This document shows, in pieces, positions 3,031-5,140 of a stretch of 5,484 nucleotides of DNA (the first letter of the stretch is position 1; each line of letters starts with the position of its first letter). The notes beneath the pieces were generated by a model, which did no database searches, was not told the origin of the DNA, and saw only the letters and a program-made list of their open reading frames with translations. Source of the DNA: a virus (taxonomy: Duplodnaviria; Heunggongvirae; Uroviricota; Caudoviricetes); the IMG/VR virus record IMGVR_UViG_2657244940_000006. One strand, written 5' to 3'. The position numbers were made by a program, and so were the translations under genes.

Positions 3031-3219
3031 TTATCCAGCCGGTGTTTCGTTATTCAGGTACAGCGATACTTTTTTTAACGGGAGGCATTCACCGGGGATT
3101 TTTTGTTCGTCCCTTACCTGAATGCAGGATGACTTACTGTCATAAATTCCGGTAATCACATTCTGCGGCTCACCCGTTATAAGAAAAACGGTCATTATCA
3201 GTGCAAACGCTGAAGTCAC
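3031..3219 (-). CDS. ydfD: YdfD-like small membrane (lysis-associated) protein, 62 aa
   Basis: Immediately downstream of dicB with a 4-nt overlap (GTGA; GTG start at 3217..3219, GGAG about 9 nt upstream). Hydrophobic N-terminus (MTSAFALIMTVFLITG) consistent with a single transmembrane helix. Size and position match the K-12 Qin dicB-ydfD arrangement. The alternative ATG at 3193..3195 lacks an RBS. Confidence 0.55.
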   Translation of the reverse strand: MTSAFALIMTVFLITGEPQNVITGIYDSKSSCIQVRDEQKIPGECLPLKKVSLYLNNETPAG

Positions 3220-3404
3220 TGCTGTTCTCCGATAATACCAAGTTCAAGAAGGGCAATTCTGGAAAGTATGGAATTATCATTGAGAAGATAAGGTTCATAT
3301 TTTCTCATCTTAATGGCATCTTCAGTAAACTCCCGGTTACTGAGCAGAACTCCAATATCAAAACAACCTTCAGACGTATTAACGTTTGGTAATAACGTTT
3401 CCAT
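3216..3404 (-). CDS. dicB: Cell division inhibitor DicB homolog, 62 aa
   Basis: Protein METLLPNVNTSEGCFDIGVLLSNREFTEDAIKMRKYEPYLLNDNSILSRIALLELGIIGEQQ; the N-terminal ~33 aa closely match my recollection of K-12 DicB (MKTLLPNVNTSEGCFEIGV...TEDAI), the C-terminal third diverges. RBS GAGGA 7 nt upstream of the ATG at 3402..3404. The supplied ORF 3216..3551 is an artefactual N-terminal extension running through the dicF-dicB spacer. Confidence 0.85.
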   Translation of the reverse strand: METLLPNVNTSEGCFDIGVLLSNREFTEDAIKMRKYEPYLLNDNSILSRIALLELGIIGEQQ

Positions 3405-3575
3405 TATCGCGTCCTCAACAATGAATTTTGTGATGCAGTGCCTGGTGCCTCCAGGTGACGTTAACCAGTTAACAACTAACGCCGGGTCAGGGGACGATGA
3501 CTTTCCGTGACATCCTGTCGGTTTAACTGTTCCGCGTGCGCATAGCCGCATTCACCGCATCACAAAATTCACTTT

Positions 3576-3616
3576 AAAAAGGGCGGACATCAGCAATCGG
3601 CAAACCGATGTCCGCC
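3576..3616 (-). terminator. Rho-independent terminator hairpin (10-bp perfect stem GGCGGACAUC / GAUGUCCGCC, 15-nt loop, then C + U5) at the DicF-like RNA 3' end
   Basis: Seen directly: plus-strand 3582..3591 ggcggacatc and 3607..3616 gatgtccgcc are reverse complements; the T-run on the minus strand corresponds to plus-strand a-run 3576..3580. On the plus strand the hairpin is not followed by a T-run, so termination is orientation-specific. Confidence 0.65.
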
Positions 3617-3632
3617 AAGGGCTACACACAGC
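3576..3632 (-). ncRNA. dicF: DicF-like small RNA (divergent variant); 3' end defined by an intrinsic terminator; 5' end approximate
   Basis: Minus-strand sequence ...GUGUGUAGCCCUUGGCGGACAUCGGUUUGCCGAUUGCUGAUGUCCGCCCUUUUU, followed by AAAGTGAATTTTGTGATG...GGTGAATGCGGCT...GCGCACGCGGAACAG, which matches the dicF-dicB spacer of K-12 as I recall it. The RNA body keeps the UUGGCGG...CCGCCCUUUUU framework of DicF but differs internally. Lies about 170 nt upstream of dicB, as in Qin. Confidence 0.5.
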
Positions 3633-3699
3633 AATGTTGTTATTCACAACCGGAAGCGCACGGTCGAAGAAATCTAACGACAAGCCTTCAATGGGAAAG

Positions 3700-3855
3700 A
3701 GTCTTCGCCGTGCACTTTCGTGTTGTACCCTGGCTTTCAGGGTAATGTCTGTTCAGTAAACTGAGAGTGCCGGAACTTACCCGTGTCCGGCGCACGATCT
3801 CCACCTCACCCGTGGAGAACTCCTCAACTACAAACCCCGTAAGGAGAGTGAGTTT
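3700..3855 (+). promoter_or_regulatory. Putative promoter and structured 5' leader of the plus-strand small gene (two hairpins 3767..3793 and 3798..3818 upstream of the RBS)
   Basis: Seen in sequence: inverted repeats gtgccgga/tccggcgc (8-bp stem with one G-U, 11-nt loop) and tctccac/gtggaga (7-bp stem, 7-nt loop) followed by AAGGAGAG. Only weak sigma70-like hexamers (TTGTAC ... TAATGT with 14-nt spacing, about 3723..3748). Promoter assignment is speculative. Confidence 0.25.
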
Positions 3856-4065
3856 ATGACACAAGAAGAAAAAGTGATGTTTCTGATGCGGCTGGCTGTC
3901 GATACCTACAACACACAATTCAGGGAGAAAGATATACCTCAAAAGGCAGTTCCTGCCGCGGTAGATAAGGGCGGTGCTATTGCCGTATTTTACGATGCAT
4001 TTGAATCATTTTTTAATGAAAAACTCGACGCTGTTAGCGGCTTCGGAACATCGAGTAATAAATAA
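3856..4065 (+). CDS. Small hypothetical protein (69 aa), opposite orientation to the surrounding operon
   Basis: ATG at 3856 preceded by a strong Shine-Dalgarno AAGGAGAG (3841..3848) with 7-nt spacing; TAA stop at 4063..4065. Protein MTQEEKVMFLMRLAVDTYNTQFREKDIPQKAVPAAVDKGGAIAVFYDAFESFFNEKLDAVSGFGTSSNK has no recognised family. Its 3' end overlaps by 32 nt the 3' end of the convergent minus-strand ORF 4034..4393. Confidence 0.6.
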   Translation: MTQEEKVMFLMRLAVDTYNTQFREKDIPQKAVPAAVDKGGAIAVFYDAFESFFNEKLDAVSGFGTSSNK

Positions 4066-4393
4066 CGTTCATTACGGTTCTTAAACAACAATCAGTGGGC
4101 TTGATGTTGTTCTTTTCAAGCTCACTTGCCATCACTTCCATTATTCTTGCACTTACACGAATTATTTGGTGGCTGTAAGCGATGCAACTGTCGCTGATAT
4201 TGCTGTTTATTTCTATTACTTCATTTTCACCATTAGCATCAACTTCGGATGCGCTGTTTTCATTATCCTGTTTCAGTGCTTTTTCTGCCATCTGGATGCG
4301 TGTCAGCGTTGCGGAATTTGGGCTAAGTCGATAAACCTGTCTGGCATCTTCCAGAAGCAGGGCGATAATGTGCTTCAGTTCTGTTTCGTTCAT
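4034..4393 (-). CDS. Hypothetical early protein (~119 aa from ATG at 4391..4393)
   Basis: The supplied ORF 4034..4414 begins with a TTG; the first ATG (4391..4393) has GGAG about 8 nt upstream. Acidic central tract (DNENSASEVDANGENEVIEINSN). The C-terminal end overlaps the plus-strand gene, so the true 3' end is uncertain. Confidence 0.5.
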   Translation of the reverse strand: MNETELKHIIALLLEDARQVYRLSPNSATLTRIQMAEKALKQDNENSASEVDANGENEVIEINSNISDSCIAYSHQIIRVSARIMEVMASELEKNNIKPTDCCLRTVMNVIYYSMFRSR

Positions 4394-4424
4394 AGTTAAC
4401 TCCGGTAGTTGCAATTTATTAATA

Positions 4425-4730
4425 TCAGGCGGTCAGCTCTTTAAGCTTCTGAACTGCTTTATTCATTTCATCCATACAGTCGATGAATTCGTCCAGTTTA
4501 AGCTGCATTTTTCCGGCGGCCTGAAGAATTTCAAGTTTTAAGGGCGCAAGTTTTTTGTTGAATGCATCATCTTCCTGGCGTTTTTTCTCCGCAATTTCGG
4601 CGGCTTTCAGCAATTCTTCAGCCTGTTTTCTGAGTATTTCTGGTGAAGGTGAAACTGCTTTGAGGTTATTCATTTCAGGTTCCTGTTGTTGCAGAATTAA
4701 TTTGTTGCATTCTCTGCGTGAGCGTTTCAT
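4425..4730 (-). CDS. Hypothetical coiled-coil-like protein (101 aa)
   Basis: ATG at 4728..4730 overlaps the stop of the upstream gene (ATGA at 4727..4730), suggesting translational coupling. Sequence rich in K/E/A/L/Q heptad-like segments (EILRKQAEELLKAAEIAEKKRQ...). Alternative internal ATG at 4671..4673 with AGGA upstream. Confidence 0.6.
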   Translation of the reverse strand: MKRSRRECNKLILQQQEPEMNNLKAVSPSPEILRKQAEELLKAAEIAEKKRQEDDAFNKKLAPLKLEILQAAGKMQLKLDEFIDCMDEMNKAVQKLKELTA

Positions 4731-5137
4731 TGCAGATTCGCACTTCTTGCAATAAATGGCTCTCCCGTCACGCTTGCTGGCATCTGAATAAAAATCATTG
4801 ACTGATTTTGTCTGCCCGCATCTGGTACATAATTTTGATTGAAGGTCCTTAATGATTGTGACGTTTCCTTCCCGCTTGGGATATCCATATTTTTGTGGCG
4901 TAAAAAGGTTACTCCGTTACCAGAACCTTCTTTTCTGACCTTAAATACAATGATGCTTTCCCGTTTATCGATAAAATCGATGAGCTGGTTTCTCTCCTTT
5001 CCTGACAGTTCGGCAAATGTCTTAACTTTTTTAGTAACCTCAGTAAGGCGAACGCCGTCAGGCATTTTTTCAACGAAGTTTTTAATCTCTGCAAGCGGAC
5101 GCCATAATTTTTGCGGCAAAACTGAAGGCGTGGTCAT
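4727..5137 (-). CDS. Hypothetical early protein (136 aa from ATG at 5135..5137)
   Basis: The supplied ORF starts at TTG 5138..5140; the adjacent ATG at 5135..5137 has a strong RBS GAGGTGA about 5 nt upstream and lies 3 nt after the upstream gene stop (5141..5143). No family recognised. Confidence 0.6.
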   Translation of the reverse strand: MTTPSVLPQKLWRPLAEIKNFVEKMPDGVRLTEVTKKVKTFAELSGKERNQLIDFIDKRESIIVFKVRKEGSGNGVTFLRHKNMDIPSGKETSQSLRTFNQNYVPDAGRQNQSMIFIQMPASVTGEPFIARSANLQ

Positions 5138-5140
5138 CAA

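Follow-up and report, generated by a model that had tools for sequence, protein, structure and literature searches.

A counter-strand small gene in a lambdoid early-left region and its near-constant pairing with a converging gene

Gene Content of the Window

The stretch of DNA analyzed here (the window, 5,484 nt) comes from a lambdoid prophage, of which it represents the early-left region (pL type). In near-identical DNA of UPEC-245U and O104:H4, the N, cI, cro, and cII genes are found further upstream; the coverage of the window by any complete Escherichia coli genome does not exceed 86%. The following features were recognized.

Minus strand: bet/RecT fragment, gam, and a RecE-like gene (866-2938) (family match or RefSeq annotation of near-identical DNA)
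3031-3219, minus strand: DUF1482 gene (family match or RefSeq annotation of near-identical DNA)
3216-3404, minus strand: dicB (PF05358, E value of 2.5e-37)
3581-3630, minus strand: DicF-like terminator/sRNA (RF00039, 29.5 bits against a gathering score of 48)
3646-3727, minus strand: long hairpin between the DicF-like RNA and the plus-strand gene (wobble changes keep the pairing on the minus strand)
3734-3762, plus strand: best candidate promoter, weak and putative, with -35 CTTTCA at 3734-3739, a 17-nt spacer, -10 TAAACT at 3757-3762, and a start near 3769
3769-3855, plus strand: putative 87-nt structured leader, with hairpins at approximately 3769-3791 and 3798-3818 and a hairpin sequestering the Shine-Dalgarno sequence at 3818-3852
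3841-3846, plus strand: Shine-Dalgarno sequence AAGGAG, 9 nt before the ATG
3856-4065, plus strand: 69-aa protein-coding gene of the phrog_2605 family, ATG at 3856 and TAA at 4063-4065 (profile match, PGAP, pN/pS, open frame)
4034-4065, both strands: 32-nt overlap of the 3' ends of both genes, coding for the C-terminal tails of the two proteins, each of which is poorly conserved
4034-4393, minus strand: convergent partner gene, 119 aa (phrog_2982)
4043-4192, minus strand: conserved core of the partner, aa 68 to 117 (motif and pLDDT of ~90)
4425-5140, minus strand: phrog_2539 gene, split here by a frameshift (family match or RefSeq annotation)

Apart from 3856-4065, all genes supported by a family match or by the RefSeq annotation of near-identical DNA lie on the minus strand, including one further gene at the window end that is represented by its 3' part alone. 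An earlier note, made from the sequence alone, had stated that the 69-aa open reading frame (ORF) runs against every other gene of the window and shares 32 nt with the minus-strand ORF 4034-4393, and both statements are correct. Two of the minus-strand ORFs are listed with a 5' extension: the one given for dicB, with 111 aa, reaches further upstream than the DicB domain, which begins at ATG 3404, and the listed extension of the partner gene reaches a TTG at 4414, with the ATG at 4393 giving the 119-aa product. In the phrog_2539 gene, which encodes 237 aa in its intact form in UPEC-245U, the T-run at 4890-4894 (within 4885-4905; an A-run on the minus strand) has one A fewer than in UPEC-245U, so that the gene is split into the ORFs 4727-5140 and 4425-4730. 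The split could reflect a slippage site or an error in sequencing, or the gene could be a pseudogene. In the closest relatives, the place of dicB and DUF1482 (window positions 3031 to 3551) is taken by kil and a hypothetical gene, and the comparison indicates a swap between the dicB/DUF1482 and kil modules directly beside the conserved DicF-like region.

Coding Evidence for the 69-aa ORF

The plus-strand ORF and its near-consensus Shine-Dalgarno sequence were found as originally described. Since 61 ORFs in the window reach at least 30 aa, the length of this ORF alone is not beyond chance, and the frame might be open by chance, lying antisense to a part of the early operon that is not translated, and have been spread by annotation pipelines. 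The ORF is short and has no known domain, there are many chance ORFs of similar size in the window, and half of the variable sites among the closest relatives are nonsynonymous (3 of 6, a count too small for a selection test at that depth). The gene was judged to be real because of comparative evidence. It is annotated by PGAP in near-identical prophages (WP_000189937/6/8), its position in O104:H4 strain 2011C-3493 being NC_018658.1 2532608-2532817, and matches the phrog_2605 profile over its full length (residues 1 to 69 on profile positions 1 to 69 of 69; E value of 2.8e-44). In 8 homologues with 44 to 57% amino acid identity and saturated synonymous sites, only frame +1 is free of stop codons, whereas each of the other five frames contains 1 to 8 stops. 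In the homologue comparison, pN is 0.25 to 0.47, well below the saturated pS of 0.49 to 0.91, and the numbers of variable sites at the first, second, and third positions of codons 2 to 16 are 8, 1, and 13, respectively. In four aligned sequences, all differences within the first 45 nt of the ORF are synonymous third-position changes, except for Gln3His in phage EPP-1. The start context and the Shine-Dalgarno sequence of the gene are conserved as well.

Purifying selection on a minus-strand frame rather than on the plus-strand one had been named as one observation that would count against the gene. In the homologue comparison, no conserved minus-strand frame was found across 3856-4065, the ORF 3688-3942 on the minus strand of the window does not stay open in relatives, and it is the plus frame that is under selection. 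The spurious-ORF explanation, to which we assign only a slight probability, is contradicted by the open-frame and pN/pS results and can be considered essentially excluded. On this comparative evidence, 3856-4065 is a genuine gene for a predicted small, acidic, soluble two-helix protein.

The Plus-Strand Protein Family

The phrog_2605 family is an uncharacterized family of small phage proteins with a narrow distribution, being found only in enterobacterial temperate phages (SfII, EPP-1, an Stx1c phage, and Rac/Qin-like prophages). Homologues with 44 to 57% identity come from other E. coli prophages, Edwardsiella phage EPP-1, Shigella phage SfII, Buttiauxella, and metagenomic contigs. A search of 1.8 billion representatives gave 16 clusters of the family at 50% identity, and the gene is present in 74 of 5,426 complete E. 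coli genomes; a scan of one genome per species added a single locus, in Buttiauxella. The AlphaFold model of the 69-aa protein, which is of moderate confidence (pLDDT of 62), consists of a helix at residues 3 to 22, a variable loop, and a second helix at residues 32 to 65, and the conserved positions fall within the two helices. The protein has a pI of 4.9 and a GRAVY value of -0.24, and no membrane or hydrophobic segment was predicted in it. There was no Pfam match to this protein at E values of up to 1, and searches of Pfam, NCBIfam, PADLOC, and PDB sequence profiles assigned neither this protein nor the partner to any family. Likewise, a Foldseek search against the PDB returned no match at all for the 69-aa model and none with an E value below 1 for the partner model. 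Literature mentions of the 69-aa protein accessions were looked for and none were found.

The Partner Gene

The protein encoded on the minus strand is soluble and acidic. In its predicted layout, the N-terminal helical hairpin is followed by an acidic disordered linker and then by a C-terminal helical hairpin, which is conserved and has the motif LL.[IV]S[AS]E[IV]L..LKSEL...G[IV]KPT..NL..V..II..SL. Its length varies from 57 to 201 aa across the loci; the N-terminal parts are unrelated to each other, and a C-terminal domain of ~57 residues is common to all. The minimal partners of 57 to 59 aa in other phages consist of this C-terminal domain alone. In the minimal phages (SfII, L023, and L032 to L036), the partner gene is the first gene after the repressor gene. 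The two hairpin families were compared as possible homologues of each other, and hhalign gave a probability of 0.07%. The possibility that the partner is a cIII-like FtsH inhibitor was also rejected (hhalign probability of 0.4% against lambda cIII).

In phage SfII, the partner corresponds to an unannotated 68-aa ORF (L030 3654-3860, minus strand; NC_021857.1 28147-28353). This ORF is the first after the cI gene and converges on SfII_36.

Pairing of the Two Genes across Phages

The plus-strand gene and the partner were found together in 16 of the 17 loci examined. When the search was anchored on the plus-strand gene, the partner domain was present in 11 of 12 loci, with overlaps of 18 to 45 nt; these are the window, L005, L010, EPP-1, L020, L022, L023, L024, L025, SfII, and a distant pair in L019. 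When it was anchored on the partner, all five loci, which had been chosen via three divergent partners of 57 to 59 aa, carried a plus-family gene tail to tail with it, with overlaps of 36 to 39 nt. The only unpaired locus is an insertion sequence-flanked remnant in Buttiauxella. The paired phages have saturated synonymous sites and entirely different neighboring genes. As judged from this distribution, the plus-strand gene and the convergent minus-strand gene form a conserved two-gene module, co-inherited across distant enterobacterial temperate phages, and the co-conserved portion of the partner is its predicted C-terminal helical hairpin of ~57 residues.

The K-12 Qin prophage and L017 lack both the plus-strand gene and the partner. 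In K-12 and in 2015C-4136CT1, ydfC leads straight into the conserved dicF-precursor sequence, with the junction at the position of the Shine-Dalgarno sequence of the plus-strand gene, and the fuller Qin-like prophages have ydfA-ydfB-ydfC together with a 201-aa partner and the plus-strand gene. The difference from K-12 Qin that the earlier note had pointed out is, then, one of presence versus absence of the two genes, and the Qin region of K-12 is, in these alignments, a reduced version of the region. That note had also proposed comparing related prophages for presence or absence of 3856-4065 as a unit. Presence and absence were indeed observed, but the unit that is gained or lost in these comparisons is the pair and not the 69-aa ORF alone. 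Similarly, the convergent arrangement described there stands, whereas its suggestion of a lone moron insertion does not fit well, because the C-terminal domain of the partner is co-conserved with the plus-strand gene across distant phages.

The gene might still be a free-standing moron, that is, a lysogenic-conversion, exclusion, or antidefense factor acting on the host or other phages, with its association with the partner reflecting only their physical linkage inside a mosaic module. Linkage alone could explain the co-inheritance of adjacent genes, and several observations point in this direction: the slot is of the same kind as that of lambda sieB, it holds unrelated plus-strand genes in other prophages (a GhoS-like gene in E24377A and a 77-aa gene in STEC719), the plus-strand gene stands alone in Buttiauxella, and the partner survives without a full plus-strand gene in 2014C-3307. 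However, the pairing persists despite saturated synonymous sites and wholly different neighbors, and simple linkage would not predict that the C-terminal domain of the partner is conserved while its N-terminal parts are swapped. In addition, there was no match to PADLOC or any other defense family, a true SieB gene is also present in L020, and neither an own terminator nor presence or absence as a single gene, as expected of a moron, was found. We regard this explanation as possible but somewhat unlikely.

Some loci retain the partner next to a damaged plus-strand gene. In 2014C-3307 (L038, about 700-860), the partner ORF is intact, and the promoter region and ~37 first codons of the plus-strand gene have been lost. 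The partner ORF is also intact in L026, where the plus-strand copy (1501-1711) has a stop at codon 3 and a frameshift, and in L033, where the plus-strand copy (2639-2830) has at least one frame disruption. Among the complete genomes, 81 contain the partner at a coverage of at least 80%, as compared with 65 that have a full-length blastn match to the plus-strand gene of the window; ~16 contain the partner without a full-length plus-gene match, of which 2014C-3307 was the only one inspected. The plus-strand gene is therefore dispensable for carrying the partner, which weakens the case for its being an antitoxin.

In such a toxin-antitoxin-like pair, the hairpin of the partner would harm either the host or the prophage state, and the 69-aa protein or its antisense mRNA would neutralize it. 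The near-invariant co-occurrence of two genes whose 3' ends overlap tail to tail, the toxicity of adjoining early-left genes (dicB and kil), and the apparently constitutive-type promoter of the plus-strand gene would all agree with such a function. However, type II toxin-antitoxin systems are co-directional operons with recognizable domains, and the genes described here are convergent; type I toxins are small hydrophobic peptides, and the partner is soluble and acidic. No toxin-antitoxin or defense family in Pfam, NCBIfam, or PADLOC was matched. Furthermore, the loci in 2014C-3307 and L026, in which the partner ORF lies beside a broken plus-strand gene, are viable at least as repressed prophages. 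We consider a toxin-antitoxin function quite unlikely.

Promoter, Leader, and Terminator

The earlier note had raised the possibility that the gene is independently transcribed. In distant loci, an extended -10 element (TGnTATnnT) is located 36 to 41 nt before the ATG in all six cases and is the top-scoring sigma-70 site in each of them. In an alignment of ten distant loci, this element falls within a block of ~70 nt (GCCTGTCTTTTCACCACnTCAGGCTCGGTGGTATCTTGGnGTTCTCACACAACCAAGAAGGA) that has a mean column identity of 70%, with the synonymous sites of the gene being saturated. For the distant relatives, an independent promoter in this family is well supported. In the window type, the position of the ancestral extended -10 element is occupied by TGGAGAACT, which is not a promoter, and a promoter-prediction scan of the window found no plus-strand promoter here. 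The best candidate in the window matches 7 of the 12 hexamer positions and is below the threshold, with one T missing; the loci L005, L010, L016, and L014, which have TTTTCA-17-TAAACT, reach a promoter score of 8.0. The GTAAACTG sequence in the candidate promoter region is invariant in 12 loci, and the distance from the candidate to the upstream inverted repeat is similar to that in the distant loci. The candidate TAAACT element lies within sequence that is also retained in prophages without the plus-strand gene and that forms the 5' part of the DicF precursor. A search for a conserved intrinsic terminator within 260 nt downstream of the gene found none in 10 loci. The proposal of independent transcription thus has good support in the distant relatives, whereas the window has a weak candidate promoter and no intrinsic terminator.

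The 87-nt sequence between the candidate start and the ATG may serve as the leader of the plus-strand gene. Its predicted fold pairs the Shine-Dalgarno sequence with the upstream ACUCCUC (3819-3825), and this CUCC/GGAG pairing is kept in 11 of the 12 aligned loci, including L014 with its different cargo gene. The fold z score of the leader region is -4.75 on the plus strand versus -2.75 on the minus strand. The leader sequence is retained in K-12, which lacks the plus-strand gene.

These features raise the possibility that the RNA is the main functional product, with the plus-strand transcript being a cis-antisense regulator of the early-left transcript (of the partner, of DicF/DicB processing, or of read-through) and the ORF being secondary. 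Given the absence of a terminator, the transcript must extend antisense into the partner gene; its leader is highly structured; conservation is higher in the promoter block than in the coding sequence; and the OOP/cII pair of lambda provides a precedent. Of the features of a cis-antisense RNA, the 3' overlap was found (32 nt here and 18 to 45 nt in related loci), but a noncoding regulator was not. Indeed, purifying selection is clear at the protein level: the two helices are conserved in their amino acids, third positions vary freely, and in both genes conservation is lowest in the overlapped tails. A predominantly RNA-level function is accordingly very unlikely.

Conserved Upstream Sequence and the DicF-Like RNA

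A sequence of ~200 nt at positions 3640 to 3840 is retained in K-12 and L017, both of which lack the plus-strand gene, so that the upstream conservation cannot be credited to this gene. The long hairpin at 3646-3727 is assigned to the minus-strand RNA because its natural variation is tolerated as G-U pairs only there, with C-A mismatches resulting on the plus strand; by this criterion, it belongs to the minus-strand operon and not to the plus-strand gene. In the alignment with K-12, it is located ~137 nt 5' of DicF. In K-12, an RNase III cut ~137 nt upstream of DicF yields a 190-nt DicF species (Ragunathan et al., PMC10448788), and the hairpin is probably the corresponding RNase III site, giving a long DicF precursor. 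The small hairpin at 3729-3743 favors the plus strand, and covariation in the others (3768-3794 and 3799-3817) is too weak to assign a strand. The idea that the conserved 200 nt represent solely the promoter and leader of the plus-strand gene was ruled out by their retention in K-12 and L017, the minus-strand G-U pairing, and the RNase III site.

The dicF-dicB module reported in the earlier note is confirmed with regard to dicB. The DicF-like RNA, in contrast, scores below the Rfam gathering threshold: its terminator hairpin has been conserved, but the RNA carries a 5' seed (UGUGUGUAGCCCUU) unlike that of K-12 DicF, so that its targets may differ as well.

Several further observations were made in this part of the operon. 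The structured sequence of ~200 nt located 5' of dicF is common to the window and to K-12 (NC_000913.3, about 1649050-1649380). Between the DicF-like RNA and dicB, the sequence resembles the Rfam family STnc100, with a score below the threshold (27 bits, the gathering score being 47; window positions 3372 to 3583, minus strand), and a match of the same kind was detected in L019 and L015. In phage EPP-1 (L003 3925-5001), rdgC and the plus-strand gene are separated by ~1 kb without an annotated gene, part of which can be aligned with the structured sequence conserved among the E. coli prophages.

Comparison with Known Systems

sieB is a superinfection-exclusion gene of lambda, P22, and Rac, which in Rac also occupies this slot; it encodes a membrane protein and is expressed from the prophage by its own promoter. 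In lambda, the plus-strand sieB gene (34482-35036) is contained in the pL operon and directly adjoins the 3' end of the minus-strand N gene (35037-35438). Given this textbook case, the architecture of the window is nothing unusual among lambdoid phages: like sieB, the plus-strand gene opposes the whole early-left operon, converges on an upstream pL gene without any intergenic space, and is positioned between the N-proximal genes and the kil/recombination genes. Backwards genes in lambdoid early-left operons are thus already known, and what is new here is the family and the pairing. By analogy with sieB, the plus-strand gene might be expressed in the prophage from a promoter of its own. Unlike SieB (~190 aa, PF14163), the protein has 69 aa, is soluble, and has no Pfam match, and a true SieB (PF14163) gene adjoins its homologue in L020. 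Moreover, sieB is not known to be linked with a co-conserved domain of the gene on which it converges. The near-constant pairing with such a domain is, on present comparisons, the distinguishing feature of the gene described here.

For the convergent 3' overlap, the closest mechanistic analogue is provided by OOP RNA and cII of lambda, a convergent cis-antisense pair that overlaps at the 3' end and is cleaved by RNase III; OOP is a 77-nt noncoding RNA. Similarly, the convergent units in the window have tens of nucleotides in common where the early gene has its 3' end, with no terminator between them, although here the duplex and its cleavage are putative and the countertranscript encodes a protein under purifying selection. 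RNase III also acts nearby in this case, in DicF processing (PMC10448788).

In the coliphages 186 and P2, the lytic and lysogenic promoters are arranged face to face and interfere with each other's transcription, and the transcripts encode the repressor and lytic regulators. The locus studied here resembles this arrangement in that a presumably prophage-active promoter faces an early lytic promoter; in SfII, L023, and L032, the facing promoters are only ~0.5 kb apart and lie next to the repressor gene. In contrast to 186 and P2, neither product resembles a DNA-binding regulator.

The dicBF operon of K-12 Qin (ydfA-ydfB-ydfC-dicF-dicB) is of the same operon type and shares with the window the sequence 5' of dicF, the long hairpin, and the TAAACT candidate. 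It differs in that ydfC there abuts the conserved sequence and in the seed of the DicF-like RNA; furthermore, the operon of the window is, unlike the Qin operon, of the N-dependent lambda type.

Proposed Mechanism

There is about an even chance, in our estimate, that the plus-strand gene is expressed in the prophage and is coupled to its partner by convergent transcription and perhaps also by protein contact. The gene would have its own sigma-70 promoter, represented by the conserved extended -10 element in most relatives and by the weaker TTTCA-N17-TAAACT candidate in the window, and would be expressed in the lysogen while pL is repressed. Because there is no intrinsic terminator, its transcript would continue into the partner gene as antisense RNA. 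In the other direction, transcription from pL after induction would have to pass through the plus-strand gene, antisense to it, before arriving at the DicF-like RNA and dicB. The promoters could then oppose each other by transcriptional interference and through an RNase III-sensitive duplex, as OOP does with lambda cII, so that the prophage state would favor the plus-strand gene and induction would silence it. The two genes may modulate each other as a sense/antisense pair, as the earlier note envisaged. A weaker part of the proposal is that the 69-aa protein might work with or against the C-terminal domain of the partner, which is suggested by the co-conservation of the two hairpin proteins.

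A bolder, and in our judgment unlikely, version of this coupling is that the two small helical-hairpin proteins, encoded tail to tail on opposite strands, constitute a previously unrecognized switch module of temperate phages of enterobacteria. The plus-strand gene would hold down the first early-left gene and the leaky read-through into toxic genes, both by convergent transcription and by hairpin-hairpin binding, and induction would flip the balance. In minimal phages, the two genes adjoin the immunity region, and in the Rac-, Qin-, and Stx-type prophages they lie immediately upstream of DicF/DicB or Kil.

A functional pair would mean an additional level of control over the early-left operons in Stx-, Rac-, Qin-, and SfII-type prophages, which carry the cell division inhibitors DicF, DicB, and Kil. 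It would also offer a tractable case of two protein genes that regulate each other by overlapping convergent transcription. The finding would be routine if the plus-strand gene were just another hypothetical cargo gene in a slot like that of sieB. In either case, the annotation can be corrected, as the partner ORF of SfII had remained unannotated and the plus-strand gene had been missed in several records.

Other Cargo in the Same Slot

In the E24377A prophage, the same counter-strand slot contains a gene for a GhoS-like antitoxin endoribonuclease (L014 2711-2995, plus strand; NC_009801.1 1424135-1424419), with no ghoT annotated within the ~2.5 kb viewed on either side. In STEC719, the slot is occupied by an unrelated 77-aa plus-strand gene (L016 2209-2442). 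Both of these cargo genes are located downstream of the same conserved upstream sequence.
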